From assembly GCA_039589155.1 (NCBI GenBank), contig JBDHHX010000002.1, positions 1 to 40,358 of the forward strand: DNA of 40,358 nucleotides, read 5' to 3'. Positions 9,838 to 38,497 of the stretch are shown here, piece by piece (the first letter of the stretch is position 1; each line of letters opens with the position of its first letter). The stretch is from Gemmatimonadota bacterium (GTDB lineage: Bacteria > Gemmatimonadota > Gemmatimonadetes > Palauibacterales > KS3-K002). The notes beneath the pieces were generated by a model that saw only the letters and a program-made list of their open reading frames with translations, ran no database searches and was not told where the DNA came from. The position numbers and the translations under genes were made by a program.

Positions 9838-9853
9838 TGTTGGTAATGGGAAA

Positions 9854-10012: not shown

Positions 10013-10045
10013 GCTGCAATCCCAGATCCCGAACTCGGGAATTCC

Positions 10046-11800
10046 CTAATCCCGCTTCCCAAGAACAGCAGTCAGTTCGACGACTTCCCCTTCTCGTTTC
10101 ACCTTGATCTGCACCGTGTCTCCCGGCGCATGATCCCGTAGCGCGTAGGTATAGTCGTAAATGTTCACGACTTCCTTGCCGGCGAACTCGACCACCACGT
10201 CGCCGCCCTGCAGGCCCGCCGCTTCCGCCGGGCTACCGGCGCGCACGCCCGACAGCCGCAGGCCGCCGCCCTCGACCTCGCCGAAGTCCGGGATCGTTCC
10301 CAGGTAGGGGCCGTAGCCACCGCCGCCGCTGACCTGCGGCCGCTGCCGCTCGATCAACGTCAGCTCGCCGGGCCAGTTCGCCAGGTCGCTGATCAGGATG
10401 GCTGAGAAATCCGCGACCTGGGCCATACCCTCGGCGTTGATCAGCTCCCAATCGTCGTCTGGCCGGTGGTACTGCGTATGTGTACCGGTGAACATGTGGA
10501 GAACGGGGATCTTCTTGGCGTAAAACGAGGTCTGGTCGCTGGGCCCGTATCCGTCACCGACATAGCTGAGAGTCAGCGCGTCGTCATTCGCATCCAGCGT
10601 ATCGAGCAGCGTCTCGAACTCCTCAGCCGACTCGGTTCCGAACACCTGCATGTCCCCGTCGTCCTTCAGGCGGCCCACCATGTCGAAGTTCACCATGGCC
10701 GTCACCTGGTCGAGAGAGAACGGCGGGTTGTTGACGAAGTAGTCGGAGCCCAGGAGGCCCATCTCTTCGGCGCTGAAGGCGACGAAGACCAGGCTGCGCG
10801 CCGGGCGGGCGTCCGGTTGGGTGGCGAAGTACTCGGCCAGGCCCAACAGCACGGCGGTTCCCGAGCCGTTGTCGTCTGCGCCGTTGTGCGGGCTCACATC
10901 GTCGGGCGCCAACGAGCCGGGCCCGCCCATCCCCAGGTGGTCGTAGTGAGCGCCGACGACGACGATTTCGTCGGCCCGCGCGGGGTCGGAGCCCTCGAGC
11001 TTACCGACCACGTTGTGCGCCGTCACCTTCAGCGGCTCGACCTTGGCGTCCAGGGTGATTTTCAGCTCCTCATCGCTCAGCAGTTCCAGGATCTCAACGC
11101 TCTCGAGGATCTGGATCGCGGGGATCCCAACCGAGTGAGGCGGATCGCCGGCCTGCGGCAGGCGGAGCCTCTCCACCACTATGAAGACCGCCTCGGCGCC
11201 TTGCTCCCTGGCGGTCGTCACCTTACGACGGGGGCTTGGGTCGACGCCTGACCCGTGGGGATCGAAATCGTCCGGCGTGCCGCCCTGCAGCATGACGAGG
11301 GTGGGCGACTCGATGTCGGCGTAGGCGTCCGCGCTCAGGCCATAGCCACCACTGAACGGGCCGCCGCTCGCTGCACCGGCGCCGGAGAAGTTGAACGGCA
11401 TCCACTCCGTACCCAGCTCCAGCTCGCGTGTACCGCCCGACGTCTCTAGGACCAGGCGGCTATCGGTCGCCACCGTGATGGTTGTCGTGATCTCGAACGA
11501 TTGCAGATACATGTTCGTACTGCCCAGCGGTTCGAGCCCGTACGAGTCGAAGAACGTCGCGATGTAGGCAGCGGCGCTGTCGGCTCCCGGCTCGCCCGCC
11601 TCGCGGCCGGCCAGCTCGTCGCTGGCCAGGTACCTTACGTGGCCCAGCAGAACTTCGGGATCGATCGACTGAGAAAGCGCCAGCGTCGGCGCTGTGAGGA
11701 CGCACATCGCGCTCAGGGCCAGCCAGCGGGCCGCCCGGACGCGGAAAGGTCGCTCCCGGTTGCGCGGGTCGCGCGCAACTGTATGGATTGAGATCGTCAT
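10046..11800 (-). CDS. M28 family metallopeptidase with PA domain and C-terminal PDZ domain, secreted
   Basis: It has a signal peptide (RWLALSAMCVLTAPTLALSQS). The M28 metal ligands are present (HYDHLG, GADDNGSG, EEMGLLGS, NFDMVG, YHRPDD). A PDZ-like domain lies at the C-terminus (GLRLSGVRAGSPAEAAGLQGGDVVV). Confidence 0.9.
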   Translation of the reverse strand: MTISIHTVARDPRNRERPFRVRAARWLALSAMCVLTAPTLALSQSIDPEVLLGHVRYLASDELAGREAGEPGADSAAAYIATFFDSYGLEPLGSTNMYLQSFEITTTITVATDSRLVLETSGGTRELELGTEWMPFNFSGAGAASGGPFSGGYGLSADAYADIESPTLVMLQGGTPDDFDPHGSGVDPSPRRKVTTAREQGAEAVFIVVERLRLPQAGDPPHSVGIPAIQILESVEILELLSDEELKITLDAKVEPLKVTAHNVVGKLEGSDPARADEIVVVGAHYDHLGMGGPGSLAPDDVSPHNGADDNGSGTAVLLGLAEYFATQPDARPARSLVFVAFSAEEMGLLGSDYFVNNPPFSLDQVTAMVNFDMVGRLKDDGDMQVFGTESAEEFETLLDTLDANDDALTLSYVGDGYGPSDQTSFYAKKIPVLHMFTGTHTQYHRPDDDWELINAEGMAQVADFSAILISDLANWPGELTLIERQRPQVSGGGGYGPYLGTIPDFGEVEGGGLRLSGVRAGSPAEAAGLQGGDVVVEFAGKEVVNIYDYTYALRDHAPGDTVQIKVKREGEVVELTAVLGKRD

Positions 11801-11864
11801 GGCGACCCAAGTCTATCCGGGGAGCGGCTGGAATTCAACGGACGGAGCATTTGAGCGCGAAGTG

Positions 11865-12755
11865 ATGGCGACGGGAGAGAGCGTGGGCGGAGCGTGGCCC
11901 CAGGAGCGGCACTACGTGGCGGAAGGGCCGGGCGGCCCCCTGTTTGTACGCGAGCTGGGGGAAGGTCCTCCGCTTGTGGTTCTTCACGGCGGACCGGGCG
12001 CCCACCACGACTATCTGCTGCCCCACTTCGCGCCGTTGGCCGAGGAGCGCCGACTCTATTTCTACGACCAGCGCGGCGGCGGCCGCTCCCGGGTGGTGCG
12101 GCCCTCGGCCGTCGGCTGGCGCGACCACGTGGCCGATCTCGAGGCGCTCCGCCGGCTGTGGGGTCTCGATGGCTTGACCCTGCTTGGCTACTCGTGGGGT
12201 GGCCTGCTGGCGCTGCTCTACGCCGTCGAGCGGGCCGCAGATAGCGAGTCGGTGAAGGCGATGGTGCTCGTGGCGCCCGCCGCCGGCTGGGGCGACTACC
12301 ATCGACGGTTCCGAGCGGAATTCGCCCGGCGATCAGTCTCCGACGAGGTGAAACGAATGCGGGCGCAGCTCGAGGCGTCCGGGCTCGCAGATGACGATCC
12401 CGAAGCGTATCGGCAGCGCCGCTTCGACTTGAGCGTGGCCGGGTACTTCCGCGACCCCCGGGATGCCATCGACTCGACACCGTTCGTCGTCCAGGCGCAG
12501 GCCCAGCAGGCAACCTGGCTGAGCCTGAAGGACCACGGCCCTGAGCTCAAGCGCGGCGTCGAAAAGCTCGAGACGCCGGCGCTCATAATTCACGGGCGCC
12601 ACGACCCGATCCCGCTCGAGTGGGCCGAGGAACTGGTCGCCGCCATGCCCGCTGCCCGTCTTGTGGTCCTCGAGAACAGCGGGCACGTTCCGCACGTTGA
12701 GCAAGTGGATCGCACTTTGGCAGAGATACGCCGGTTCCTGAAGGAGCGTACATGA
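11865..12755 (+). CDS. Alpha/beta hydrolase, S33 proline-iminopeptidase-like
   Basis: It has the HGGPG oxyanion motif, a GYSWGG nucleophile elbow and a C-terminal GH (NSGHVPHVE). I preferred the start at ATG 11865 because its distance to HGGPG matches the family. The alternative ATG at 11799 would overlap the divergent M28 start codon within tCATGg. Confidence 0.8.
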   Translation: MATGESVGGAWPQERHYVAEGPGGPLFVRELGEGPPLVVLHGGPGAHHDYLLPHFAPLAEERRLYFYDQRGGGRSRVVRPSAVGWRDHVADLEALRRLWGLDGLTLLGYSWGGLLALLYAVERAADSESVKAMVLVAPAAGWGDYHRRFRAEFARRSVSDEVKRMRAQLEASGLADDDPEAYRQRRFDLSVAGYFRDPRDAIDSTPFVVQAQAQQATWLSLKDHGPELKRGVEKLETPALIIHGRHDPIPLEWAEELVAAMPAARLVVLENSGHVPHVEQVDRTLAEIRRFLKERT

Positions 12756-15930: not shown

Positions 15931-17406
15931 ATGATGCCTCAGCCGCTACCCAGGACGCTTGGAGAGCTGAAGAAGTCCGGCTACTGTCCGCGTTCCGTGA
16001 AGGAGGAGATGCGGACCAACCTCATCGGAAAGCTCGAGGCCGGCGACGAGCTGTTCCCTGGCATTCTCGGTTACGAGGATTCCGTCGTGCCGCAATTGGT
16101 GAACGCCGTGCTGGCGCGTCACAACTTCATCCTGCTCGGGCTTCGCGGACAGGCGAAGAGCCGAATCCTGCGAGACCTGGTTCAGTTCCTGGATGAGACG
16201 ATCCCGATCATCGCCGGTTCGGAGGTGAATGACGACCCGTTCCACCCAATCAGCAAGCACGGGCGACTCACGGTGGAGGAGAATGGCGACGACACACCGC
16301 TCGACTGGGTGCCACGTGAGCAGCGATACGTAGAGAAACTGGCCACGCCGGACGTGACCATCGCCGACATAATCGGCGACCTCGATCCGATCCGCGCCGC
16401 GCGCGGCGGCCACGTCCTCTCTGACGAGCTGACCATCCACTACGGATTACTGCCTCGGGCGAACCGCGGGATCTTCGCCGTGAACGAGCTGCCTGACCTT
16501 GCGGGCAAGATCCAGGTCGGCCTCTTCAACATCATGCAGGAGGGCGACGTCCAGATTAAGGGCTATCCCATCCGGCTTGCCCTCGACGCGCTCCTGGTAT
16601 TCACCGCCAACCCGGAGGACTACACGGCCCGCGGCAAGATCATCACTCCGCTCAAGGACCGGATCGGCGCCGAGATCATGACCCACTACCCGGAGGAGCT
16701 CGAATACGGGATCCAGATCACCGAGCAGGAGGCGTGGATCGAACGCAGCGAGCGACCCATCCAGGTCCCGCGGATGATCAAGGAGATCGTCGAGCGCGTC
16801 GCCTTCGAGGCCCGGGAAGATCAGCGGGTCGACCGTCGCTCAGGCGTCTCGCAGCGCCTGCCCATCTCGGTTATGGAGAGCGTCGTCTCCAACGCCGAGC
16901 GCCGGGCGATCGCCAACGGCGAGGCGCTGGTCGTGCCCTGGGTATCTGACATCTACGCATCACTTCCAGCCATCACAGGCAAGCTCGAGCTCGAGTACGA
17001 GGGCGAGCTGGAAGGCGGCGGAAAGATCGCCCGCGACTTGATCTCCAGAGCCGCAGGCGCCACGTTCGACGAGTATTTCGTCGAAGAAGACGCGATGCCC
17101 GTCGTCGAGTACTTCGACACGGGTGGCGCGCTCCAGGTCGCCGAGCTCTCCAGCGCCGAGGCTTGTCTCAAGGGTTTTGGCACCGTGCCCGGGCTGGTCG
17201 AACTCGCCAAGACTGCCGCGCCCGCCGAGCCCGGTATCGACGACAGCTCCGGTCTCGTCGTCGCCAGCGAGGTCGTCCTCGAGGGCTTGGTCGCCAAGCG
17301 GAAGATCAGCCGCAGCGAGGCCGGCAGCTATTCGCGCGGCAGAGATCGCCCGCGGCCCTCGCAGGGCGGTGGGCCGGGAGGCTCCAATTGGCCACACGAG
17401 ATATAA
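15931..17406 (+). CDS. ChlI/MoxR-like AAA+ ATPase (Mg-chelatase subunit-I-like family, often annotated sigma-54-interaction-domain protein)
   Basis: An AAGGTGA Shine-Dalgarno sequence lies upstream. It has a Walker A-like motif (LLGLRGQAKS), a Walker B region (GIFAVNELPDL) and an N-terminal PRTLGELKKSGY..SVKEEMR motif that I recall from this family. Confidence 0.75.
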   Translation: MMPQPLPRTLGELKKSGYCPRSVKEEMRTNLIGKLEAGDELFPGILGYEDSVVPQLVNAVLARHNFILLGLRGQAKSRILRDLVQFLDETIPIIAGSEVNDDPFHPISKHGRLTVEENGDDTPLDWVPREQRYVEKLATPDVTIADIIGDLDPIRAARGGHVLSDELTIHYGLLPRANRGIFAVNELPDLAGKIQVGLFNIMQEGDVQIKGYPIRLALDALLVFTANPEDYTARGKIITPLKDRIGAEIMTHYPEELEYGIQITEQEAWIERSERPIQVPRMIKEIVERVAFEAREDQRVDRRSGVSQRLPISVMESVVSNAERRAIANGEALVVPWVSDIYASLPAITGKLELEYEGELEGGGKIARDLISRAAGATFDEYFVEEDAMPVVEYFDTGGALQVAELSSAEACLKGFGTVPGLVELAKTAAPAEPGIDDSSGLVVASEVVLEGLVAKRKISRSEAGSYSRGRDRPRPSQGGGPGGSNWPHEI

Positions 17407-18506: not shown

Positions 18507-21134
18507 ATGGCCGGGCCGGAAGCCTCGTCACGTCCCCGGACGAGCCGAAGGAGAACGGGCCTGCTGCGGCGGCAGGCCGCGCTGCTGCGTCTCAGCACGG
18601 CGATCGGGAGTGCCGAGACGGAGGGCACGATCTGCGGGGCCGTGGTGGACGGTCTGTACGACGAGGCGTTGGGCTACGATTTCGTGGCGCTGTTGTTGGT
18701 GGACGAGGCGACGGGCGAGCGTGTGGTAGTGGCGAGCGTGGGTTGGGCGGACGCTCCGGAAGGCCTGCGAGTGCAGCCGGGCCGGGGGTTGAGCGAGCGG
18801 CCGCTGCTGGACGGTCGCCTTCACTACACGGCGGAGGTGACTCAGGATACCCGCTACCTGCCGACGCGGAACGAGGGCTCGGAAGTCGACGTGCCGATTC
18901 AAATCAACAACGAGCTGGTCGGTGTCCTGGTCGTCGAGAGCAACCGCCCGGATGCGTTCGGGCCGGACGACTTCGAGATCCTGAGGGCGGCCGCCAACCA
19001 GGCTGGGATCGCCATCGGTCGGGCGCGGCTGCTGGCGGCGGAGCGCGAGCGGGCCGACGAGCAAGAGGCGTTGTTGGCCACGCTGGCCGACCTATCGGCG
19101 CAGCTCGAGCTGTCCACGCTGCTGCAGGCGGTGTTGGACCGGGCGGTCGCGCTGCTACGTGTGAGCCACGGTGAACTGGCGATCTACGAACCGGAGCGCG
19201 AGGAGTTGGTGATTGTCGCCAGCCACAACGTCGGCAAGCAGGACACCACTGGCACGCGCCTGGCCGTGGGCGAAGGGGCCATGGGACAGGTGGCGCGGAC
19301 CAGGGAACCGCTGCTCATCCCGAACTACCGGGAGTGGTCGGGCCGCTCGGCGCAGTACGAGCAGGTCGAGTTCCATGCCGTGATGGTCGCCCCCCTGATG
19401 ATGGGCGGCCAGCTGGTGGGCGCCATCGCCGTGATGGACAAGCACGCGGACCGCGAGTTCGGTGGCGTCGACTTGCGGCGGCTGACGATGTTCGCGCCCC
19501 AGGCGGCGGTGGCCATCGAGAACGCGAGACTGTTCGACGCCGAGCGCCGTCGTGCGGAAGAGCAGAAGGCGTTGCTCGACACGATGAAGGATCTGTCCGG
19601 CGAGCTGGAGCTCTCGAAGGTCCTCCACGGCGTGCTGGAGCGTGCGGTATCCTTGCTGAGCGTCACCGGCGGCGAGCTGGCCACGTTCGACGAGTTGGCC
19701 CGCGACCTGGTCATCGTCGCCAGCCACAACATGGGGACGAACGCGGTGGGTCAGCGGATGGCGCTCGGCGAAGGCGCCATGGGCCACGTGGCCGAGAGCC
19801 GCGAGGCGCTGATCATCCCGCGCTACCAGGAATGGCTGGGTCGGTCGGCGAAGTACACCCAGGACACGGTCCAGACGGTGATGGTGGCGCCGCTGATGAT
19901 CGGCAGCCGTTTGGTGGGCGCGATCGCCGCGGTGCACTCCGACCCGTCACGGGAGTTCGGGTCGGAGGAATTACGGTTGCTGCAGCTCTTCGCGCCGCAG
20001 GCCGCCATCGCCATCGAGAACGCGCGCCTCTACACGGCGGCCCGCCAGCAGAAGCAGTACTTCGAGGAGCTGGTGCGCAACAGCCCGGTGGCGATCGTCA
20101 CGCTCGACACGGATCACAATGCCGTCTCCTGCAACCCGGCCTTCGAGAAACTCTACGGCTACAAGCAGGAGGAAGTGGTCGGCCGCAACCTTGACGACCT
20201 GATCACGACCGAGGCCACGAGGCTGGAGGCCGTCACCTACACGGAGATGGCGCTCGAGCACCGTACGGTCAACGTGATCAGCCAGCGGCGTCGGAAGGAC
20301 GGGAGCTTCGTCGATGTCGAGGTGCTCGGTGTACCCGTCGTCGTTGACGGGCAACGACTCGGTCTGATGGCGCTCTATCACGACATCACCGAGCTGCTGG
20401 AGGCGCGTCGCGATGCCGAGGCGGCCAACAGCGCAAAGAGCCAGTTCCTCGCCAGCATGAGCCACGAGCTGCGCACTCCGCTCAACGCGATCCTCGGCTA
20501 TAGCGAGATGCTCGTGGAAGACGCGGAAGACAAGGGCCAGCCGAAGTTCGTGCCCGATCTGCAGAAAATCCACTCTGCCGGCAGCCACCTGCTGACGCTG
20601 ATCAACGACGTCCTTGACCTGTCGAAGATCGAGGCCGGCAAGATGGAGCTTACGCCGGAAACGTTCGACGTGAAGGCGACCATCGACGAAGTCGCGACCA
20701 CGGTCCGGCCGCTCGTCGAGCGGAACGCGAACGAACTGGTCGTCCGCCGTGACGGCGAGTTGGGCGACATGTACTCCGACCTGACCCGTACCCGGCAGGT
20801 GCTGCTCAACCTGCTGTCGAACGCCGCAAAGTTCACCGAGAACGGGACCATCACGCTGACGGCGCAACGCACGCAAGGCAACGACGGTGGCGAGGTGGTC
20901 GTGTTCAGCGTCAGCGACACGGGGATCGGCATGACGCCGGAGCAAGCGGCGAAACTGTTCGAGCCCTTTTCTCAGGCGGAAGCGACGACCGCCAACAAGT
21001 ATGGAGGTACCGGGCTCGGCCTGGCGATATCGCGCAGCTTCTGCCGGATGATGGGCGGCGAGGTCAGCCTTGAAAGCGAGGCCGGCGTTGGCTCCACCTT
21101 CACCGTTCGGTTGCCGACGGCAGTACCGAACTAG
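18507..21134 (+). CDS. Soluble sensor histidine kinase: GAF(A)-GAF(B)x2-PAS-HisKA-HATPase_c
   Basis: A GAGGT Shine-Dalgarno sequence lies 6 nt upstream. It has three GAF-like modules, a PAS domain ([20 protein letters not shown]), an H-box ([18 protein letters not shown]), an N-box ([12 protein letters not shown]), G1 (DTGIGM) and G2 ([11 protein letters not shown]). No hydrophobic helices are present. Confidence 0.9.
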
Positions 21135-27094
<5,960 letters not shown>

Positions 27095-27121
27095 AACCTG
27101 ATAGTCGGGAGTCGAGAAACG

Positions 27122-27487
27122 ATGTCAAAGATTCTCCTGGTCGAGGACAATGAGATGAACCGCGACATGCTGTCGCGACGACTCGAGCGGAAGGGCTACG
27201 AGGTCACCATGGCGATCGATGGTCGCGAAGGGGTCGAGATGGCCCAGGCCGGTGGCTACGATCTCATCCTGATGGACATGAGCCTACCGGAGATCGATGG
27301 CTGGGAGGCGACTCGCCAGCTACGCGCCGTAGCCGAGACCGAGAGCGTACCGATCATAGCACTCACCGCGCACGCGATGGCCGGCGACCGTGAGAAGGCG
27401 CTGGAGGCGGGCTGCGACGACTACGACACCAAGCCGATCGAACTGGAGCGGTTGCTCTCCAAGATGGAGGCTCTGCTGAACAAGTGA
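27122..27487 (+). CDS. Single-domain response regulator (CheY-like receiver)
   Basis: The protein is 121 aa. It has KILLVEDNEMN, a phospho-acceptor context (LILMDMSLPEIDG), LTAHA and a conserved Lys (DYDTKP). Confidence 0.9.
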   Translation: MSKILLVEDNEMNRDMLSRRLERKGYEVTMAIDGREGVEMAQAGGYDLILMDMSLPEIDGWEATRQLRAVAETESVPIIALTAHAMAGDREKALEAGCDDYDTKPIELERLLSKMEALLNK

Positions 27488-29427
27488 CAGCCAACGACTC
27501 GAAGTTGACGCCGGAAGAAATCGCAGGGCTGCGGCACGATCTGCGCACGCCGATCAATCACATCGTCGGTTACGCGCAGATGTTGCTTGAAGACATACCG
27601 GACACGGATCAGGCCGGGCATCGCGACGCACTCGAGCAGACGCTGGTGGTGGCGAAGGGCGCGCTCGATCTCATCAACAGCACACTCGCTGGGAGCGCCA
27701 ACGGGATCGCGACGGGTGAGCTCATCTCGTTGTACGATGCACTCCGCGAGCCGCAGAAGAGAATCGTCGACAGCGTCGCCCCGCTGCTGGCCAGCACCGC
27801 GGCCAGCGAGGAGGAGCTGGTCGGCGACCTGCGCCGCATCCTCACAGCGGCGGAGAAGCTGGTTCCGGAAGAAGGCGCGGAAGCTGGAGAGGCGGGTCCC
27901 GACGCTGACACGCATGCGGGCACGGGTCTGGCCGATGAGACCGAAGGCTCGGAGACGGGGCCGGCCCGGGTCCTGGTGGTCGACGATGTTGAAGCGAACC
28001 GCGATCTGCTGCGCAGACGCCTGGAGCGCGAGGGCCACGCCGTCGAGTGCGCCGAGAACGGTGGGCGGGCGCTGGAGACGATCAGGAAGCGCCCGTTCGA
28101 CCTTGTGCTGCTTGACGTGATGATGCCGGAGATCGACGGCTACGAGGTGTTGGGCCAGCTGAAAGACGACCCGGCTACCCGTGACATACCGGTGATCATG
28201 ATATCGGCGCTGGACGACATGGAGAGCGTCGTTCGCTGCATCGAGGCCGGGGCCGAAGACTACCTGCCCAAACCGTTCGACCCGGTCCTGCTGCGCGCCC
28301 GGATAAACGCCTCGCTCGAAAAGAAGCGGCTGCGTGACCATGAAGTAGAGTACCTGCGCCAGGTCGATCGGGTGATCGAAGCGGCTAGCGCCGTGGAGGC
28401 GGGTAACTACGAAGCGGGAGCGCTGGCCGACGTCGGCGCCCGCGACGACCAGCTGGGCAAGCTGGCCCGCGTGTTCGACGGTATGGTGGCCGAGGTACGG
28501 GCGCGGGAGCGACGGCTCACGGACCAGGTGCGCGACCTCAAGGCCGAGATCGATGCGGCCCGCCGCGCGACACGTCCCTCGGACGAGCCCGGTCTCGACT
28601 TCGCCAGTCTGTCGATCGGCGAGCGGTTCGCCGACCGCTACGAGATCGAGGGCGCCATCGGCGGCGGCGGCATGGGGATGGTCTACCGGGCGCGGGACCT
28701 GGAGCTGGACGAAGAGATCGCCATCAAGACGTTGCGGCCGGAGCTTGTCAGCGACGCCGCGCTGGTCGAACGTTTCAAGACGGAGATCAGGCTGGCTCGC
28801 AAGATCTCGCATCGAAACGTCGTCCGTACCCACGACTTCGGCGAATGCTCGGGCGTCTATTACCTGACCATGGAATTCGTGGAGGGGATCACGCTGCGCG
28901 AGCTGATCGATAGCCGCGGGCAGATCGGAGTCTCGTCCACGCTGGCAATCGGCAGCCAGCTGGCCGAATCGATGGAGGTCGCCCACGAGCAGGGTGTGGT
29001 CCATCGCGACATCAAGCCGCAGAACCTGCTGCTCGATGCCGACGGCGTGCTTAAGGTGATGGACTTCGGCGTCGCGCGACTGGCCGAGCGCACCAGCTCG
29101 TTGACCGAGGCGGGACTGATTGTGGGAACGCCGGCCTACATGTCGCCGGAGCAGCTACTCGCCGAAGCAACCGAAGCGAGCAGCGACCTCTACGCCGCTG
29201 GCGTCGTCCTCTACGAATGCCTGACGGGGAGGCTCCCCTTCGAGGCCGAGTCGACGGTCTCGCTCATCGGCAAAGTGCTCAACCTGCAGCCCTCTCCGCC
29301 GGCCGAGATCAACGCCGACATCGCGCCCGCGCTGTCGACGCTCATTCTCGAACTGCTCGCCAAGAGGCCGGAGGAGCGTTTGGGCAGTGCGAAGGAGTTA
29401 CGCGAACGGCTGTCGCAGATCGGTTAG
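27484..29427 (+). CDS. Fusion protein: HisKA-like H-box domain (no ATPase domain) - REC - helical linker - Ser/Thr protein kinase
   Basis: A GTGA overlap couples it to the CheY gene. The N-terminal H-box (LRHDLRTPINHIVGYAQML) has no N/G1/G2 boxes after it. The receiver shows VLVVDDVEAN..VLLDVMMPEIDG..LPKP. A helical linker follows (LGKLARVFDGMVAEVRARERRL). The Hanks kinase motifs are present: GGGGMGMVY, IAIKTL, HRDIKPQN, DFGVAR and GTPAYMSPEQ. Confidence 0.9.
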   Translation: MTANDSKLTPEEIAGLRHDLRTPINHIVGYAQMLLEDIPDTDQAGHRDALEQTLVVAKGALDLINSTLAGSANGIATGELISLYDALREPQKRIVDSVAPLLASTAASEEELVGDLRRILTAAEKLVPEEGAEAGEAGPDADTHAGTGLADETEGSETGPARVLVVDDVEANRDLLRRRLEREGHAVECAENGGRALETIRKRPFDLVLLDVMMPEIDGYEVLGQLKDDPATRDIPVIMISALDDMESVVRCIEAGAEDYLPKPFDPVLLRARINASLEKKRLRDHEVEYLRQVDRVIEAASAVEAGNYEAGALADVGARDDQLGKLARVFDGMVAEVRARERRLTDQVRDLKAEIDAARRATRPSDEPGLDFASLSIGERFADRYEIEGAIGGGGMGMVYRARDLELDEEIAIKTLRPELVSDAALVERFKTEIRLARKISHRNVVRTHDFGECSGVYYLTMEFVEGITLRELIDSRGQIGVSSTLAIGSQLAESMEVAHEQGVVHRDIKPQNLLLDADGVLKVMDFGVARLAERTSSLTEAGLIVGTPAYMSPEQLLAEATEASSDLYAAGVVLYECLTGRLPFEAESTVSLIGKVLNLQPSPPAEINADIAPALSTLILELLAKRPEERLGSAKELRERLSQIG

Positions 29428-30644
29428 AGGCGGTCCGGCTTGATGAGCGAGTAAAGTCGAATTCGCTCGATGCCCATATCATCGCGATGCCGGCCGAGCA
29501 GGAAATCGCGGCCGATCTGGAAAGGCAGGACTCCCTCGGGCGTTTCCACGGCACCCAGCCACCGCCCATCAGGGTCGAAGATCTCCCACCTGGAAGTCTC
29601 CCACGGAAGCCGATAGCGCTCCACCCAGAGATAGCCTTCGTCATCTACCAGTAGACCTTGGAAGACCGGTAGGTACTCGGGGACCGGAAGATCCAGCTCG
29701 AGGAACGGCGTGTAGGCTTGCCGCGTGCGCTCGGACATCGTCTCGAGAGATTCCGCTTTGTAACGATCGTAGACTTCGTCGCTGCGACGACGCTCACGGT
29801 CCGACCAGCGGATGATCGAGTTGAGGGTGCCGTCCAATCGTCTGCGCTCGACTTCCGCTGCCGCACCGCCACCGGCAAATAGCCAGAAGGCGTCCGCCGT
29901 AACCGACGCTTCGACATGGAGCGGAACGAACGGATAGTGCGTGTTCTCTCCCGCGGTGTGCCTGTATCGCGGTCGGCCCGGGAAACTCACGAGCTGGTCG
30001 CCCGGTGTCCCGTCAGCGTTGTAGCGGAAGTATCGAAGCGTGTCGGGTTCCAGCGGACCGGTGGGGCCGCGGCTAAACAAGATACTTCCCGTGACAGCGA
30101 GCGATGAGCCGTCTCCAAATCCTCCTATCAATCCGGGCACGCTCCAACCGGGAAGCGGCTCGATTCGGTACGAGTTGATGAACTCGCCACTGGGGCGGAA
30201 GAGATTCACGCGTGCGTTGCCGTCATCGGTCACGACGAGCCCGGCGCGCGAAGCCCAGATTCGCATCGACGAAAACTCGCCGAACTCGCCCGGGCCCTGC
30301 CCCTGACGTCCGACGCTGTACAGGAAGCCGCCCTGGGGATCGAAGAAGCGAATCTCTCCGCTTCCCGCGTTGCTGACGATGATCCGCCCATCGTTCAGGC
30401 GAAGCGCATCGAAGACCCGGAAGAAGATATATGGATCTTCACCTTCTTCGGCGCCGATCTCTACAGTCGGTTCGGCGGCGACGCGCCAGGCGACCTCCGG
30501 CCCCCACGCCGGCTGCAGGTTCTCGACGACCCGCACATCGGCGCTGTCCCGAACCAGCCACGCCGGACTTTCCTCGGGCCCCGCACAGCCAAGGACGAGC
30601 GGCAGCAGCGCCAGGGGCATCCAACCTGCGAATCTCGTAGCCAC
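29424..30644 (-). CDS. Lipoprotein, 6-bladed beta-propeller-like (function unknown)
   Basis: The GTG start directly follows the mutY TAA. It has a signal peptide with a lipobox (LLPLVLGC). Repeated short beta-strand/Gly motifs are present (DGRIIVSNAGSGEIRFFDPQGGF, LVVTDDGNARVNLFRPSGEF, LLVDDEGYLWVERY, EIFDPDGRWLG). Confidence 0.65.
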   Translation of the reverse strand: MATRFAGWMPLALLPLVLGCAGPEESPAWLVRDSADVRVVENLQPAWGPEVAWRVAAEPTVEIGAEEGEDPYIFFRVFDALRLNDGRIIVSNAGSGEIRFFDPQGGFLYSVGRQGQGPGEFGEFSSMRIWASRAGLVVTDDGNARVNLFRPSGEFINSYRIEPLPGWSVPGLIGGFGDGSSLAVTGSILFSRGPTGPLEPDTLRYFRYNADGTPGDQLVSFPGRPRYRHTAGENTHYPFVPLHVEASVTADAFWLFAGGGAAAEVERRRLDGTLNSIIRWSDRERRRSDEVYDRYKAESLETMSERTRQAYTPFLELDLPVPEYLPVFQGLLVDDEGYLWVERYRLPWETSRWEIFDPDGRWLGAVETPEGVLPFQIGRDFLLGRHRDDMGIERIRLYSLIKPDRL

Positions 30645-31712
30645 TTATTCTCCTGATCGCCGAATCGATTCCAGCACCCGCCTGTTCGCGGCGGGAAAGG
30701 CGTAGCTCTCCAGTTGGTCCGCCCTCACCCATGCGTATTCCTGGCAGCCGAGCGGTTTCGGCGTGCCGGTTCGGTAGCGGCAGCGGAAGGCGTGCAGCGT
30801 GATCTCGAAGTGGCTGTAGGCGTGATCGATCGCCGCGATCTTGTCGCCGGTCTCCACCTCGATGTCCAGCTCTTCCGCTACCTCACGGACCACCGCCGCT
30901 TCCGGCGCCTCGCCCGGCTCGACCTTGCCGCCGGGAAACTCCCACAGGCCGCCCAGCAATCCATCGGGCATCCGCCTGGCGATCAAGATCTCATCGTCGC
31001 GCCAGACGACACCGACGGCGATGTCATAGTGCGGCCGCCGCTTCGCCGGCCGGCGGCCGGGTCGCTCGGCAACCGTACCGCGGGCGCGCGCCTTGCACAG
31101 GCTCGCCAGCGGGCAATCACTGCAGCGCGGCGAACGCGGCGTGCAGACCCCGGCGCCGAGATCCATAAGCGCCTGATTCACATCGCCAGGTCGTTCCGCG
31201 ACCAGCGGTCCGCCGTGCTCGAGCAGCGGAGCCGGTGTCGGGTCCGGCAGATCGTGAAGCCGGCTCAGCACGCGGCGAATGTTGCCGTCCAACGCCAGCG
31301 CCGACTGGCCGAACGCGATACTGCCGATGGCCGCCGCTATGTACGGTCCCACGCCGGGTAGCGCACGCAGTGCCTCGGCATCGGCTGGCAGCCGACCTCC
31401 GTGCTTCTCGACCACGATGGCCGCCGCTTTATGGAGGTTGCGGGCGCGCGCGTAGTAGCCGAGCCCCTCCCATGACTTCAACACCTGGTCCAGGCTGGCC
31501 GTGGCAAGCGATCGTACGTCTGGGAATCGTTCCAGGAATCTTATGTAGTAGGGGATGGCGGTGTCGACCTGGGTTTGGACCAGCATGACCTCGGCCACCC
31601 AGATGCAGTAAGGGTCAGCGGTGTGCCGCCACGGCAAGTCGCGCCGCTCGGCATCGTACCATCCGAGCAGCCGGTCGCGAACCTCATTGGCTCGCGCCCC
31701 CTCCAAAGTCAC
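30645..31712 (-). CDS. mutY: A/G-specific adenine DNA glycosylase MutY
   Basis: It has RDLPWR..DPY.IWV.EVMLVQTQV, an HhH-GPD motif (LPGVGPYIAAAI), 4Fe-4S cysteines (CTPRSPRCSDCPLASLC) and a C-terminal NUDIX-like domain (WEFPGGKVE). I chose the GTG start at 31712. The ORF extension to 31865 only translates the intergenic palindrome and the dapF 3' end. Confidence 0.85.
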   Translation of the reverse strand: MTLEGARANEVRDRLLGWYDAERRDLPWRHTADPYCIWVAEVMLVQTQVDTAIPYYIRFLERFPDVRSLATASLDQVLKSWEGLGYYARARNLHKAAAIVVEKHGGRLPADAEALRALPGVGPYIAAAIGSIAFGQSALALDGNIRRVLSRLHDLPDPTPAPLLEHGGPLVAERPGDVNQALMDLGAGVCTPRSPRCSDCPLASLCKARARGTVAERPGRRPAKRRPHYDIAVGVVWRDDEILIARRMPDGLLGGLWEFPGGKVEPGEAPEAAVVREVAEELDIEVETGDKIAAIDHAYSHFEITLHAFRCRYRTGTPKPLGCQEYAWVRADQLESYAFPAANRRVLESIRRSGE

Positions 31713-31785
31713 CTCTTCATCCTCATTTTCATCGTCATCGCATCGCTTTGCCGATGACGATGAGGATGACGATGAGAATGAGGAG
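31713..31785. repeat. Imperfect palindrome built from CATCGT/CATCCT words (intercistronic, dapF to mutY)
   Basis: tcatcgtcatcg (31729-31740) pairs with cgatgacgatga (31752-31763). cctcatt (31721-31727) pairs with aatgagg (31777-31783). Alternative registers are possible. Confidence 0.8.
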
Positions 31786-31788
31786 CGT

Positions 31789-32622
31789 TCACGGGAGCGG
31801 GACGTGGCCCGTGAATATCGGTCGGGCAGGGCCTTCGAGTTCCAACAGGGTGAAGCCGCCGTCATCCCGTCGCTCGAATCGAATCGTCAGAACGTCGCCG
31901 CTGCGGGTCTCTACCGCTACGGGCGACGTGACATGTCCGGCGGCGCAAAGCGCCACCGCCGACGACATCGACCCGCTGCCACAGGCCAGCGTCTCGGCCT
32001 CAACGCCCCGCTCGTAGGAGCGAATACGAATGGCGTGGTCGTCGACGACCTCGACCAGGTGCACGTTGGCGCCGGCAGGATCCAGCTCCGGCGCATGGCG
32101 CAGCGGACGGCACTCGGACTCGATCGGTCCCTCGGGTAGGCGCTCTAGTTGGATGACGAAGTGGGAGTTGCCGATCTCCACCCGGTGGCCGCTGCGCGGA
32201 CCCTGCGGCCCGGTCACGGCCGCGTCCAGCTCCACGGTCGGTTCAGCGCTGTAGCGCAACGTGACCGTCGCGCCTGAAACTCGGGCGGCGATATGACCGC
32301 CCAAGGTGTCGATCACCATCTCATCCGACGTGAGCTTCTCGAGGGCGGCGAAGCGGGCGGCGCAGCGGGTGCCGTTCCCGCATGTCGACACCTCCTCGCC
32401 GTCGGGATTCCAAAAGCGTACGCGGACGTCCGCTCCGCAGGCGCTCACCGGTTCGACCAGGATCAGCCCATCGGCGCCCACCGACGTCCGCCGCGCACAG
32501 ACCGCGGCAGCCAGTGCGCTCAGGTCGGGCACAACTTCCAGCGCCGCGCCGTTCAACAAGATGAAGTCGTTGCCAGCACCCTCCATCTTGGAGAAGCGAA
32601 GCACGGGTACGCTCTCAGCCAC
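31789..32622 (-). CDS. dapF: Diaminopimelate epimerase
   Basis: It has FSKMEGAGNDFILL, a first catalytic Cys motif (NPDGEEVSTCGNGTRCAARF) and a second Cys motif (TLACGSGS). The GTG start shares 1 nt with the upstream TAG. Confidence 0.9.
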   Translation of the reverse strand: MAESVPVLRFSKMEGAGNDFILLNGAALEVVPDLSALAAAVCARRTSVGADGLILVEPVSACGADVRVRFWNPDGEEVSTCGNGTRCAARFAALEKLTSDEMVIDTLGGHIAARVSGATVTLRYSAEPTVELDAAVTGPQGPRSGHRVEIGNSHFVIQLERLPEGPIESECRPLRHAPELDPAGANVHLVEVVDDHAIRIRSYERGVEAETLACGSGSMSSAVALCAAGHVTSPVAVETRSGDVLTIRFERRDDGGFTLLELEGPARPIFTGHVPLP

Positions 32623-34573: not shown

Positions 34574-35280
34574 CGCCCCGTGCCGATCTCGAACTTGTGG
34601 GCCGACCGGCTGATGCGTGCCACCATGGCTTCGCGCTGTCCGCCCGACAGGTTGGACACGATTCGGCACTTCTCTATGTCGAGGATGTAGGCTTGCGGCT
34701 CGCCAGCGGGATCCGCGATCAGGATGTTCTTGAGATTGAGGTCGGGGTGCAGCACGCCGGTTCGGTGCAACGCGCCGATCAGGCGACCTGCGGCGGCCAG
34801 GGCGGAAGCGCGCTGCAGTGGATCGAGGTCGGGTTCGGCGAACAGGCAGTCCGCCAGATCGCGAGCGTTCCCAACCTCTTCCCGGGCCATTTCGCCGTGG
34901 TACGAAAAGCGAGAGGAATAGACAACGGCGGCGACCACGTTGGGCGTCAGGATTCCGAGCTGTTGGAGCTTTACCGATAGTTGTAGCTCGTTGAGCGGCC
35001 GCGGCTTGCCGCTCCTGAAGAAGCGCTTGCCGGTTATCGGCGCCAGCAAACCGCCATGGCTCAATTGGCGCACCACCCAACGCGGCGAGCCGGGGCCAGG
35101 AATGATGTACAGCTTTTGCCGACCCTGGATCGTCTCCGCATCGGGATGTCGCCTGGCGAAGTTGTACAGCGTACCCGCTGACTCGATCGCGTCTTGCACG
35201 AAAGCGACGGCGTCTTCACGGGCGACGACTCGGGCATCGCCGACTTGCGCGCTGCGGTATCCCTCCGGAACGGTCGTCAC
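34402..35280 (-). CDS. Lipopolysaccharide kinase family protein (Kdo kinase KdkA / WaaP-like)
   Basis: It has a catalytic loop (LHRTGVLHPDLNLKNILI) followed by ILDIEK. A GTGA overlap couples it to the upstream glycosyltransferase. The last ~57 codons run antisense through yggU and may be a non-functional tail. Confidence 0.7.
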   Translation of the reverse strand: MTTVPEGYRSAQVGDARVVAREDAVAFVQDAIESAGTLYNFARRHPDAETIQGRQKLYIIPGPGSPRWVVRQLSHGGLLAPITGKRFFRSGKPRPLNELQLSVKLQQLGILTPNVVAAVVYSSRFSYHGEMAREEVGNARDLADCLFAEPDLDPLQRASALAAAGRLIGALHRTGVLHPDLNLKNILIADPAGEPQAYILDIEKCRIVSNLSGGQREAMVARISRSAHKFEIGTGRHISAEISTSLSRPWSPFTIRTADFETPSFLDRKAISSSFAAPSTGGAARRILIASP

Positions 35281-36188
35281 TGTGAACGCTCCGCTCCCGT
35301 CCGCCAGGCGCCCGAATAACGCAGGGAGGATGTGAGAGTCCCGCCATCCAGGGTGGCAAGCTCCTGCTCACCATCTTTGCTCCACAACGTAAGGTGCAGA
35401 ATCCCGATGTCCCGATGCGGAAGGTAGGGCTCTACGAGTCGTTTTCGTGACGCGTCGTACTTGGGCGTGGCGCGGTGGGCCACCCAGTTGCAGGTGGCGG
35501 GTAGCAGCTCGACCGGCAGCCCCAGGCCGTGCGTGATGTATTCGAGAGTCAACTGGTCGAGGCCGCCGCGACGCGATCGCTGCAGCGCGAGCCCGTACTG
35601 TTCGCGCCAGACACTCCAGTGCGGCGCATCCGCCGCCAGCGCGAAGACACCGCCGTTCAGAGTCGGCGTGTCGATCAGCCGGTCGGCGACGTCCTTGCCG
35701 TAGATGTCCCTGTAGCGGCGCCAGCCGCCGGACGATATACGGTAGGGGATGCCCAGCACTCGCTCCACCTTGAGCTTCGTGTCGAAGGCGGGGTAGGCGC
35801 GATCCACCTCGGGCACCACGGCCAGCGCGCCCGTCGTCGCCGCCCGCACGAGAAGCTCGACGGCCGACCAGTCCTGCACCCAAGCGTCGGCGTCGATGTG
35901 AACGTAGACGTCATAGCCGGGGAAGTGATCCGGAAGGAAAGGCCGGCTGCGTAAGCCCTTCTTGTGTTCGGGCTCTTCGATCTCACCGGGCCGCCGAATA
36001 TCCCAGTCGGGCTTCACGATCGAAGCCGCGAACGGCGCCAGCCAACTCTTGTCTTCGTCAGAGAGCCCGACGTCGAGGATGCACAGGTCTACGCCCTCCG
36101 ACTCCGGCTTGTCGCGGATCGACTGTACCAGCTCCTGCAGGTACTCGAAGAAGCCGGAATCGGCGCTGGAAACGATGCATGTTCTCAT
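35277..36188 (-). CDS. Nucleotide-diphospho-sugar glycosyltransferase, GT8-like (LPS core hexosyltransferase-like)
   Basis: The pattern resembles GT8: CIVSSADSGFFEYLQELVQSI, LCILDVGLSDEDKSWL and a DxD-type motif (YVHIDADAWV). Confidence 0.55.
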   Translation of the reverse strand: MRTCIVSSADSGFFEYLQELVQSIRDKPESEGVDLCILDVGLSDEDKSWLAPFAASIVKPDWDIRRPGEIEEPEHKKGLRSRPFLPDHFPGYDVYVHIDADAWVQDWSAVELLVRAATTGALAVVPEVDRAYPAFDTKLKVERVLGIPYRISSGGWRRYRDIYGKDVADRLIDTPTLNGGVFALAADAPHWSVWREQYGLALQRSRRGGLDQLTLEYITHGLGLPVELLPATCNWVAHRATPKYDASRKRLVEPYLPHRDIGILHLTLWSKDGEQELATLDGGTLTSSLRYSGAWRTGAERSQ

Positions 36189-36275: not shown

Positions 36276-37250
36276 ATGCACTTTCGAAAGATCCTCGGGA
36301 TCAAGCTGCGCGAGATCGGAGATGCGGTGATTTGGACATCAGCGCTACAGTCTCTTCGTAGCGCGTTTCCGGATGCCAGTATCGATGTGCTCGTCAGAGA
36401 CAGCGTTGAGCCTGTTCTCGATCGCCAGCCATGGATCGATCGAGTTCACACCGTATCCCGCGAGACCTTTCCACTGGCGCGGCGGTTGCTTGCACTCAGG
36501 GCAGAGAAGTACGATCTGGCGCTGGGTTTCAGCGCCACCAACACGCTCTGTCGGCTCATTCCGCTACTCGGCGCTCCCCATCGCGTTTTGTACCACGTGA
36601 AGCGGAGCGGCGACCCGCGCTTCTCGACTTTCCCGCTGCCGGAGCTGCGGCAGAATGCCAACGCGATCGATCACGATCACCGTGTTGTACGCGCCCTTGG
36701 CGTCGAGGGAGAGCCGCCGCCGCCGACTCTCGTGCTGAGTGACGGCGAGCGAGTGAGCGCGCGCGACCGCTTGCTCTCTTTCTTTCCCGACCTCGGGTCG
36801 AGAGACATTGCACTCGTCGGGCTGCTTCCGGGCGCCAGGGCCGATGACAAAATTTACCCGAAGGATCTGTGGCTGCGCGTGCTCGACGGTATCGTCGAAG
36901 CGCGGCCCCGGGTCCCGGTGGCGGTACTCGTCGATCGGGACCTCTCGACTCTCTGGAACATGCGCCAGCTTTGCGAAGAGAGAAACGTCCCTCTCTTCGA
37001 TGACCTTGGCCTCCGCGAGCTCATGGAGATGTTGAGCTGGATGAGCGTCGTCGTCTGCAACGATTCCGGGCCCAAGCACATCGCGGTCGCTTTGGGCGCC
37101 CGGTCCGTGACGCTGTACGGCCCCACGAAAGTCGAGGAATGGCACCCCTACGACCTGACGCTTCACCCTGTCTTCAGGGAAACTGACATGCGCCAGATCG
37201 ATCCGGAGCAGGTGTGGCGAGTGACGAGCGAGCTGCTGGGCGGCATATGA
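36276..37250 (+). CDS. Glycosyltransferase family 9 (LPS heptosyltransferase-like)
   Basis: It has an N-terminal ILGIKLREIGDAVIWTSALQSLRSAFP motif and a C-terminal VVCNDSGPKHIAVALGARSVTLYGPT motif. I chose the start at ATG 36276; the ORF is open from 36237. Confidence 0.8.
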   Translation: MHFRKILGIKLREIGDAVIWTSALQSLRSAFPDASIDVLVRDSVEPVLDRQPWIDRVHTVSRETFPLARRLLALRAEKYDLALGFSATNTLCRLIPLLGAPHRVLYHVKRSGDPRFSTFPLPELRQNANAIDHDHRVVRALGVEGEPPPPTLVLSDGERVSARDRLLSFFPDLGSRDIALVGLLPGARADDKIYPKDLWLRVLDGIVEARPRVPVAVLVDRDLSTLWNMRQLCEERNVPLFDDLGLRELMEMLSWMSVVVCNDSGPKHIAVALGARSVTLYGPTKVEEWHPYDLTLHPVFRETDMRQIDPEQVWRVTSELLGGI

Positions 37251-38497
37251 CTGCACGAGTGCGTGACAGACGCTTATTGGTCTTTGCCATCGCAGCGCTC
37301 GTGATCGGAACGGCGCTACGACTGTCCTATCCCGCCGACATTGAATACAAGAGCGACGAGCGCTGGATGTTCGAGATGACGCAGCGGGTTGCCGCCGGTG
37401 AGGCATGGCCGGCCGTCGGCATGATCTCGTCCGAGAGAGTGGCGAACCCCGGGTTGAGCGTCTGGCTGTTCATCGGTTTGCAGAAACTCTCCGGTGCGGA
37501 GACGCCGGTGGGATTGGCGCGTGGCGTTCAACTGGTCAACATCCTTGCCCTCGCTCTTCTCTTTCTGTTCGTCTGGTGGGCAGTACCGGAAGGCGAGAGG
37601 CGGGGTTGGACGTGGGGTGCGTCGCTCGCCTGCGTCAGTCCCATTTCCGTGATCTTTCATCGCAAGATCTGGGCGCAATCACTCCTGCCGGTCTTCGGGA
37701 TGGTCTTCTTGATCGGCTGGTGGTACCGAGGTAGACATCGGTCCGCCGCCTTTGTCTGGGGGCTTGCCGGGGCGTTGCTCGGCCAGATCCACATGGCCGG
37801 CTTCTTCCTGACGGCCGCGGTTCTGGCGTGGACCGTGCTGTTCGATTCTAACAGGAAGAAGATCTCGTGGCCGTCATGGGTGCTGGGATCTGCAGCCGGC
37901 GCGGTCACGCTGATCCCGTGGCTGATCCAGGCGAGCGCCAGGTTGGGCGCGGCGCGGCCGGCCTACGATGTGTCATCCTGGTATCTCTTCAAGTGGTGGA
38001 ACTACTGGGTCAGCAACGCCGCCGGCCTCGTTCTGCAATCGCCGCTACGTGGCGCCTTCGCGTCGTTTCTCGAGTATCCCATCATCGGCGGCCGGCCGAC
38101 TTATTTGGTGGCGGCGTTGCACTTGATCCTTGTGGCGTGCGCTCTCTACGTGCCTTGGCTTCTCATCGGCGGCATCGCGAATAAGCGTGGAAGCTGGTTG
38201 ACGCTGTTCATTGGGAAGTCGTCCGACTCGTCGCTTCTGATGAGCTCCTACCTGTGGGGATGTGGTTTCTTGATGATGGTCGTGGGCGTCATAGCCGATC
38301 GCCACTACCTTCTTGTGGCTTTCCCGCTCGTCTACGTCTGGTTCGCTCGTGTCCTGGCCAGCGATTCACGGTGGGGAACGCGGGTATACGGCATCGCGTG
38401 GTCGGCCCAACTGCTCGTGACAGCACTGTTTCTCTATTACGTCCACGTCAACGGGGGCGTCCTGCTCGGCACCTATCGGGCCGCCTTCCCCCAGTGA
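37247..38497 (+). CDS. Polytopic membrane protein, GT-C-fold glycosyltransferase-like (ArnT/PMT-like) or polymerase/ligase-like
   Basis: An ATGA overlap couples it to the GT9 stop. It has at least 10 hydrophobic segments. An acidic motif (YKSDERWMFE) follows the first helix, as in GT-C enzymes. Confidence 0.5.
   Translation: MTARVRDRRLLVFAIAALVIGTALRLSYPADIEYKSDERWMFEMTQRVAAGEAWPAVGMISSERVANPGLSVWLFIGLQKLSGAETPVGLARGVQLVNILALALLFLFVWWAVPEGERRGWTWGASLACVSPISVIFHRKIWAQSLLPVFGMVFLIGWWYRGRHRSAAFVWGLAGALLGQIHMAGFFLTAAVLAWTVLFDSNRKKISWPSWVLGSAAGAVTLIPWLIQASARLGAARPAYDVSSWYLFKWWNYWVSNAAGLVLQSPLRGAFASFLEYPIIGGRPTYLVAALHLILVACALYVPWLLIGGIANKRGSWLTLFIGKSSDSSLLMSSYLWGCGFLMMVVGVIADRHYLLVAFPLVYVWFARVLASDSRWGTRVYGIAWSAQLLVTALFLYYVHVNGGVLLGTYRAAFPQ

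Follow-up and report, generated by a model that had tools for sequence, protein, structure and literature searches.

A putative His-Asp-His-Asp phosphorelay leading to a receiver-HAMP Ser/Thr kinase in Gemmatimonadota

In the sporulation relay of Bacillus subtilis, several kinases (KinA-E) feed a single-domain receiver, Spo0F, from which the phosphoryl group passes to a histidine on Spo0B, a bundle of the dimerization and histidine phosphotransfer (DHp) type without a working ATPase, and then to the terminal receiver of Spo0A. Spo0B aligns to HisKA (PMC2267735), and within Caulobacter's CckA-ChpT-CtrA/CpdR pathway the phosphate is moved between intermediate and terminal receivers by ChpT, which is likewise derived from the DHp of a histidine kinase (PMC3433190, PMC9981736). 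The locus described here, which has a comparable set of parts, lies in a stretch of 40,358 nucleotides (the window) that makes up positions 1 to 40,358 of contig JBDHHX010000002.1 from a Gemmatimonadota bacterium (assembly GCA_039589155.1). At its center is a gene at 27484-29427 for a single polypeptide that joins an N-terminal H-box domain, a receiver and a Hanks-type Ser/Thr kinase, which we refer to as the kinase protein.

We propose, with a probability of roughly 0.55, that this protein is the end point of a His-Asp-His-Asp relay running from histidine kinases (HKs) to a stand-alone receiver, to H18 of the N-terminal bundle, to D211 of the internal receiver and through a HAMP domain to the kinase; we infer each of the transfers and the way it runs, as well as the dimeric state and how the kinase is regulated. 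To our knowledge, the links described between the two main bacterial phosphorylation systems consist mostly of cross-phosphorylation of separate proteins rather than a hard-wired fusion. Response-regulator censuses reportedly list rare fusions of a receiver to a protein kinase. Gemmatimonadota are abundant soil bacteria whose signaling is, as far as we know, almost unstudied.

The kinase protein and its duplicated bundle

The architecture of the kinase protein is given below, one feature per line, with AlphaFold2 confidence as the predicted local distance difference test (pLDDT).

27484..29427, + strand: open reading frame (ORF) of the kinase protein, 647 residues; GTG start codon overlapping, as GTGA, the stop codon TGA of the upstream receiver gene
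27511..27690, + strand: DHp hairpin 1, with the H-box LRHDLRTPINH, residues 10-69; Pfam HisKA, hhalign to HK DHp P = 5.6e-25
27535-27537, + strand: codon of H18, in the H-box of hairpin 1
27712..27861, + strand: DHp hairpin 2, degenerate, residues 77-126; hhalign to HK DHp P = 5.8e-10
27862..27963, + strand: disordered tether of variable length, residues 127-160; pLDDT 28-45, below 50 for residues 130-157
27964..28350, + strand: internal receiver (residues 161-277) and its alpha-5 extension ASLEKKRLRDHE (to residue 289)
28114-28116, + strand: codon of D211, the phospho-Asp of the internal receiver
28351..28566, + strand: HAMP domain (about residues 290-340) and coiled coil (to about residue 361); Pfam HAMP, AlphaFold2
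28567..28638, + strand: flexible linker to the kinase, residues 362-385; pLDDT below 50 for residues 363-373, variable in the alignment
28639..29427, + strand: Hanks-type Ser/Thr kinase domain, an RD kinase, residues 386-647; Pfam Pkinase, PknB match

A Pfam search recovers all three domains of the combination that the original prediction, made from the letters of the DNA, had put forward: HisKA (PF00512) at residues 12-68, with 32.9 bits against a gathering threshold of 26.9, Response_reg (PF00072) at residues 163-274, with 106 bits, and Pkinase at residues 386-637, with 176.6 bits (E 8.5e-52). Neither HATPase_c nor Hpt (PF01627) matches the 647-residue protein in Pfam down to E <= 1, in agreement with the earlier view that the H-box domain has no ATP-binding boxes and would be unable to autophosphorylate alone. 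The catalytic and ATP-binding (CA) domain with N, G1 and G2 boxes that follows the DHp of a functional sensor histidine kinase thus appears to be absent. We considered a cryptic HATPase_c between the H-box and the receiver and rejected it; Pfam gives no match there at the same threshold, and because residues 70-160 hold two helices and a disordered tether of about 35 residues, there is no room for an alpha/beta ATPase domain of about 110 residues. The protein is wholly cytoplasmic, with no transmembrane segment and no PASTA sensor, and a GGAGG lies 13 nucleotides 5' of its GTG start.

The N-terminal region had been read as a lone H-box domain. The H-box is there, but it belongs to the first of two tandem hairpins. 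In a profile-profile comparison (hhalign) of about 170 family sequences with 108 DHp domains of neighboring kinases, hairpin 2 matches genuine DHp domains in register (P = 5.8e-10, probability 96.6%), and it also matches hairpin 1 (P = 1.3e-9); from a shallower alignment the two hairpins had matched each other only weakly (P = 0.006). The two hairpins align with LYDALREPQKRIV opposite LRHDLRTPINHIV, and D85 of hairpin 2 therefore falls at the position of the phospho-accepting histidine. Two Pfam HisKA stretches in front of the receiver are still visible in more distant relatives. These comparisons indicate that the domain is a tandem duplicate of a DHp hairpin in which one histidine, H18, has been kept.

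AlphaFold2 places the helices of this domain at residues 10-37, 44-69, 77-104 and 110-124/126. For the domain modeled alone from 54 sequences, the prediction is a four-helix bundle in monomeric form (pLDDT 91.9, predicted template-modeling score (pTM) 0.84), and the 7-residue connection between helices 2 and 3 is compatible, from topology, with a DHp-like bundle of pseudo-two-fold symmetry. The matches listed by a Foldseek search of the PDB with the bundle are generic four-helix bundles only (best E 0.13, template-modeling score 0.5-0.6). One of them is the normally dimeric ROP protein made as a single chain, which is apt as an analogy but carries no weight as evidence.

Residue conservation was counted on an alignment of 204 relatives, 195 of which cover H18 and 199 of which cover D211. 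Position 18 is histidine in 190/195, and R17, T22, P23 and N25 are near-invariant as well, though overall identity among the N-terminal domains is only about 50%; the equivalent position of hairpin 2 varies among D, E, A, T and Q. An H-[D/E]-x-x-T motif (H18, D/E19, T22) is invariant in the family. Counted from the histidine on the alignment, N, G and Y stand at +7, +11 and +12 both in hairpin 1 and in the three HKs encoded upstream (HK1-3); from work on EnvZ we take these to be DHp specificity positions. An alpha-1 motif, NRDxLxRRLE, is common to the stand-alone and internal receivers. Given these common residues and this common motif, it is plausible that the bundle docks onto receivers in the manner of a histidine kinase.

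Docking might also be all that the bundle does. It could act as a non-catalytic dock or decoy, with H18 unphosphorylated, either by binding the phosphorylated stand-alone receiver to relieve autoinhibition of the kinase or by engaging the DHp of an HK in a RetS/GacS-like way. Hairpin 1 shares 36% identity with the HK3 DHp, its sequence matches in the PDB are the DHp domains of HK853, of RetS and of a histidine kinase without a name (7n0e), and the conserved adjacency to the stand-alone receiver described below would fit a binding partnership too. However, the surface that a partner DHp would need is predicted to be occupied by hairpin 2, and the retention of H18 together with flanking residues of the catalytic type goes beyond what a docking surface usually needs, whereas the equivalent position in hairpin 2 has drifted freely. 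We therefore regard a purely docking bundle as unlikely, and favor a bundle whose histidine would take part in the relay.

Downstream of the bundle, the tether differs in length and sequence among the aligned homologues. The internal receiver is complete, as had been claimed: its quintet D167/D168, D211, S241, Y260 and K263 is near-invariant over the 204 sequences, with D211 kept in 197/199, and its nearest solved structure is PleD REC1. Helix alpha-5 is predicted by AlphaFold2 to run unbroken into the linker (helix 267-306), and a second linker helix follows at 323-361. The isolated linker of the window matches Pfam HAMP (PF00672) with 19.7 bits (E 0.0011), under the cutoff of 25, and 18/20 family linkers match it, the best with E 1.9e-7; the best PDB matches of the linker family profile, which are weak, are the HAMP domains of HtrII and NarQ, and phmmer with the linker alone finds no matches in the PDB. 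On the strength of these profile matches, we assign the linker as a HAMP domain, here cytoplasmic, that continues into a coiled coil.

This assignment alters one part of the original prediction, in which the helical linker was likened to that of receiver-modulated adenylate cyclases. The helix after the receiver, 'ASLEKKRLRDxE', is indeed common to both, but the linker itself is a HAMP domain that the cyclase relatives lack. Homology between the two linkers was rejected, as in the cyclase relatives 'LERKRLRDRE' is followed at once by a short coiled coil and then by the cyclase domain. The likeness drawn to receiver-coupled cyclases is probably explained by the existence of a cyclase-output family, which has the whole N-terminal cassette in common with the kinase protein.

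The kinase domain, which as had been claimed has all catalytic motifs, is closest to PknB of Mycobacterium tuberculosis (E 2.8e-57), and T541 of its activation loop aligns opposite T171 of PknB. The VAIK lysine K415, HRD 507-509, the catalytic asparagine N514, DFG 527-529, E556, the alpha-F aspartate D568 and the alpha-H/I arginine R632 are conserved in essentially 100% of the 204 relatives, and G393/G395/G398 of the Gly-rich loop, the alpha-C glutamate E434 and P555-E556, the latter in an SPE variant of the [AS]PE motif, are also invariant. By sequence, then, this is predicted to be an active RD kinase, and the invariance of all catalytic residues rules out a pseudokinase at that level.

The operon and the reuse of the bundle-receiver cassette

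Four further genes precede the kinase gene on the same strand.

18507..21134, + strand: HK1, cytoplasmic sensor HK with three GAF domains, PAS, HisKA and HATPase_c (Pfam); first gene of the operon, its stop abutting the start of HK2
21135..24959, + strand: HK2, hybrid HK with GAF domains, PAS, HisKA, HATPase_c and two receivers (Pfam)
24956..27094, + strand: HK3, sensor HK with two GAF domains, PAS, HisKA and HATPase_c (Pfam); its start overlaps the stop of HK2 by 4 nucleotides
27122..27487, + strand: stand-alone receiver, 121 residues; Pfam Response_reg 99.7 bits, with E8/D9, D52, T82, Y101 and K104

The kinase gene is the fifth and last of this same-strand cluster (18507-29427), in which the successive gaps are 0, -4, 27 and -4 nucleotides. 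The five tightly packed genes look like one operon, and the stand-alone receiver and the kinase gene are likely to be translationally coupled through the GTGA overlap. The best NCBIfam matches of the HK3 transmitter core are the hybrid kinases TorS, LuxQ, BarA and ArcB, and those of the stand-alone receiver also come from hybrid HKs, namely the receivers of BarA, PRK15347 and HrmK. The pair of HK and stand-alone receiver looks like a split hybrid kinase, which would normally be in need of a histidine phosphotransfer partner; Pfam finds no Hpt match in any of the five operon proteins. The two C-terminal receivers of HK2 are unlike the stand-alone receiver.

Homologues that span the full length form more than 120 clusters (at 90% identity); they are 60-99% identical and 630-660 residues long and all contain HisKA, Response_reg and Pkinase, and so the architecture is not a product of chance. 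Their database names are generic only ('protein kinase [Gemmatimonadota/Gemmatimonadales bacterium]' or 'CheY-like chemotaxis protein'). The original prediction called such kinases rare and poorly characterized. 'Rare' is misleading: the family is widespread in Gemmatimonadota, and in species-representative genomes at least 574 stretches that match either of two short kinase/receiver motifs were confirmed by tblastn. Poor characterization is the part that stands, as no characterization was found in the literature searched; within the incomplete coverage of that literature we likewise found no description of a receiver-HAMP-Ser/Thr kinase, of the bundle-receiver cassette or of Gemmatimonadota signaling.

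Gene order was surveyed in the best 80 of these at least 574 loci, which are mostly from Gemmatimonadota, with a few in bins labeled Acidobacteriota, Rokubacteria or Deltaproteobacteria; the closest named organism among the matches listed is Candidatus Kutchimonas denitrificans, at 78% identity. Of these loci, 65/80 also matched the N-terminal region, and the informative loci are the 65 species loci that have enough upstream sequence. The stand-alone receiver lies directly upstream in 61/65 of these, nearly all of them Gemmatimonadota, and in 56 of those 61 it overlaps the kinase gene through an in-frame NTGA start/stop. Typically one to three GAF/PAS HKs stand ahead of it. On the other side of the orthologue, a second and longer Ser/Thr-kinase gene (740-910 residues, kinase domain 30-41% identical) follows on the same strand within about 2.2 kb in L005, L010, L011, L015, L021, L027 and L031, and overlaps the end of the orthologue in L015 and L027; at this place the window carries a convergent beta-propeller gene.

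The bundle is not confined to kinases. When 1.84 billion representative proteins were searched exhaustively with a profile of the N-terminal domain, 1,397 matched at E <= 1e-10; a word-indexed search with the 131-residue domain gave just 9 short proteins. Of the 57 bundle matches of at least 400 residues, 56 also contain a receiver, and the outputs that follow are Guanylate_cyc (20), HATPase_c (19), Pkinase (4), SpoIIE/PP2C (3), HD_5 (1) and a Sigma54 activator (1), the order in the HATPase_c relatives being bundle, receiver, HisKA, HATPase_c. The receiver and its 'SLEKKRLRDxE' alpha-5 extension are conserved in cassettes of every output type. Members of the cyclase-output family, always under generic database names, come from Beggiatoa (Beggiatoa alba), Thioflexithrix, Thiotrichaceae, Pyrinomonadaceae and Pseudaminobacter. 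Short proteins that consist of the H-box bundle alone were also met in the searches: P0128 (128 residues) lies on a 504-kb contig and may be a genuine stand-alone bundle, and P0121-P0124 (122-160 residues), on contigs under 2 kb or without a recorded contig, may be fragments.

The link to the stand-alone receiver extends to these other outputs, being found directly upstream in 4/5 of the relatives whose surroundings were examined. A receiver gene of 122-124 residues adjoins the HK-output relative P0153, with the same 4-nucleotide overlap and an HK before it; one of the same size adjoins the cyclase relative P0130; and the cyclase relative P0135 likewise has one immediately upstream, with an HK ahead of it whose sensor is of the periplasmic phosphonate-binding kind. 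Three aligned stand-alone receivers from cyclase- and HK-output cassettes are about 70% identical to that of the window, and the HK transmitter cores beside such cassettes are 50-63% identical to those of HK1 and HK3, with unrelated sensor domains. In P0130 (906 residues; loci L083-L085) and P0135 (833 residues; L087) the unit 'degenerate hairpin + H-box hairpin' occurs three or four times in tandem, which places several potential phospho-histidines before one receiver. Near the PP2C-output cassette of L086, an HK2-like protein (9392-12088) is 57% identical to HK2 over 500 residues, including both receivers, and is accompanied by an RsbW-like kinase and a STAS protein.

The bundle with its receiver, accompanied by a dedicated small receiver gene, is a reusable cassette that occurs with several other outputs in at least four phyla. 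We suggest, more tentatively and at somewhat short of even odds, that the single-chain, pseudo-dimeric DHp, which would have arisen by duplication with loss of one histidine and of the ATPase, represents an unrecognized class of histidine phosphotransfer domain; that together with the conserved solo receiver and related HK core it forms a portable His-Asp-His-Asp cassette with Ser/Thr kinase, adenylate cyclase, histidine-kinase, PP2C, HD-GYP and sigma-54 outputs; and that it would provide the main direct link from two-component to Ser/Thr signaling in Gemmatimonadota.

Two loci contain variants in which the receiver, HAMP and kinase are present without the bundle (L066, 4673-6151; L068, 2058-3752), and these bear on whether the bundle has a signaling role at all. 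If it were an evolutionary remnant with a structural or oligomerizing function only, the protein would be an ordinary receiver-HAMP-kinase regulator fed by the HKs, with the stand-alone receiver as a phosphate sink or branch, and the two variants do indicate that the output part can work on its own. Against this, the bundle is strongly conserved and its histidine selectively so, and bundle and receiver recur together, as one unit, with at least six different outputs. The variants themselves also lack the conserved stand-alone receiver: L068 has none upstream, and L066 has only a receiver of 41% identity. Such joint loss hints that the bundle and the conserved stand-alone receiver depend on each other, and we consider a mere remnant very improbable.

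The bundle might instead be a dedicated phosphatase. The HKs would then phosphorylate the internal receiver, the stand-alone receiver or both directly, and the bundle, as a reset module tethered in cis, would remove the phosphate much as the DHp of a bifunctional HK does in its phosphatase state, and so determine how long the kinase-activating signal lasts. In HisKA kinases, phosphatase activity too is supported by the H-[D/E]-x-x-T motif, and the isolated DHp domain of EnvZ reportedly keeps its phosphatase activity without the CA domain. The common receiver alpha-1 motif and the three common positions after the histidine make direct transfer from an HK to D211 conceivable. The motif does not discriminate between roles, however, since H-[D/E]-x-x-T is found in all ordinary H-boxes, and such a module accounts neither for a stand-alone receiver of about 70% identity beside the cassette in nearly every context examined nor for the relatives with three or four tandem His-bearing units. 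We judge a dedicated phosphatase unlikely, and prefer the relay, in which the stand-alone receiver has a defined place.

Other genes of the window lie outside the operon. A convergent gene for a DUF5128-like six-bladed propeller (29424-30644, - strand) overlaps the 3' end of the kinase gene by 4 nucleotides, and beyond it lies a gene for a MutY-like glycosylase with a NUDIX domain (30645-31865, - strand); in Ca. Kutchimonas (L039) these two genes likewise come after the orthologue. A 658-residue ORF at 1342-3318 (+ strand), 24 kb from the kinase, has two FHA domains and a trypsin-like peptidase domain. FHA domains read phospho-threonine, and this protein could belong to a Ser/Thr-kinase pathway. 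At the thresholds used, Pfam matches none of three sizeable ORFs, at 15931-17406 (+ strand), 35277-36188 (- strand) and 37214-38497 (+ strand), of 491, 303 and 427 residues, the first of which is the one just upstream of the kinase operon.

The proposed relay

In the relay that we propose, one or more of the three GAF/PAS HKs would autophosphorylate and pass the phosphoryl group to D52 of the 121-residue stand-alone receiver, which would serve as a Spo0F-like intermediate. From there the group would move to H18 of the single-chain, pseudo-dimeric DHp bundle, acting like an HPt or Spo0B module, and on to D211 of the internal receiver, the flexible tether allowing the two domains to meet. The effect of D211 phosphorylation would travel along the unbroken alpha-5 helix to the HAMP domain, as a dimer, and its coiled coil, and an altered holding of the two PknB-like kinase domains would then control the autophosphorylation of T541 and the phosphorylation of substrates.

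This reading is favored because the operon holds three HKs and a stand-alone receiver, in tight packing and with conserved synteny. In other words, the HK, intermediate receiver, candidate His module and terminal receiver of a multi-step relay are encoded together, in conserved linkage and with no canonical Hpt, and the linkage of the stand-alone receiver to the cassette is kept across outputs and phyla. It gains further support from the selective conservation of H18, from a duplicated DHp bundle that is predicted with high confidence to fold alone, from a tether that would let this bundle reach the receiver, from the resemblance of the stand-alone receiver and the HK cores to those of hybrid, relay-type kinases, and from the intactness of the internal receiver, HAMP and kinase.

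Several observations pull the other way. The bundle-bearing loci L053, L065 and L071 and the PP2C-output relative (L086) all lack an adjacent stand-alone receiver. The 50 Foldseek matches listed for the bundle include no structure of an HPt or of Spo0B, and the monomeric state of the bundle comes from an AlphaFold2 monomer prediction to which a domain-swapped dimer is the alternative. The HKs might phosphorylate D211 directly, given the similar alpha-1 helices of the receivers and the similar surfaces of hairpin 1 and the HK DHp domains, and at the level of the motif H-[D/E]-x-x-T fits a phosphatase equally well. Finally, the flexible stretch between coiled coil and kinase is about 20 residues long, which makes the mechanism of coupling uncertain.

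If the relay operates as proposed, it would be a defined case in which a receiver and a HAMP domain place a Hanks-type Ser/Thr kinase under the direct control of a His-Asp phosphorelay, and the bundle would represent a third evolutionary route to a histidine phosphotransfer module, beside the canonical HPt and the Spo0B/ChpT type. Its interchangeable sensors and outputs would allow better annotation of entries now called 'protein kinase' or 'adenylate cyclase domain-containing protein' and could be of use in synthetic signaling design. Multi-step phosphorelays are themselves already known; what appears to be new here is an undescribed type of putative His-transfer module and its Ser/Thr-kinase output.

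Comparison with known systems

The relay proposed for the window has the same order of parts as the Spo0 pathway and would end in a Ser/Thr kinase where Spo0A is a transcription factor. At the sequence level the N-terminal domain has the features of a Spo0B/ChpT-type module, namely a DHp-derived bundle with a candidate transfer histidine and no kinase activity. It departs from that type in its build: Spo0B is a homodimer with two histidines, whereas the module in the window is fused to the terminal regulator and supplies its second hairpin in cis, as a single chain with two hairpins and one histidine, and it has no C-terminal CA-like alpha/beta domain. ChpT differs in turn as a separate homodimeric protein that keeps a degenerate CA-like domain, in a pathway whose intermediate receiver is fused to the kinase (PMC3433190, PMC9981736).

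HPt domains, whether those of ArcB, BarA and TorS or stand-alone, are monomeric four-helix bundles with one exposed histidine between two receivers, a shape and logic that the bundle, as predicted, may share. The bundle has no Pfam Hpt match, however, and its duplicated HisKA sequence points to an independent origin. Class III adenylate/guanylate cyclases with N-terminal HisKA repeats have the same bundle-receiver cassette and the same 'SLE[KR]KRLRD' helix, and P0130 and P0135 have the same upstream stand-alone receiver as the window; they differ in having a short coiled coil and no HAMP domain, and these two have three or four bundle units where the window has one.

At the output end, the kinase has the RD catalytic domain, the activation-loop threonine and all the catalytic motifs of PknB and StkP (M. 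tuberculosis, Streptococcus pneumoniae), with an N-terminal receiver-HAMP input in place of PASTA domains and a transmembrane segment. The linker has the helix-connector-helix arrangement, the DExG-L-x-x-F-x-x-M signature and the output coiled coil of the NarQ and HtrII HAMP domains. In contrast to these, the HAMP domain of the window is cytoplasmic, is fed by receiver helix alpha-5 rather than by a transmembrane helix, and has a Hanks kinase as its output.

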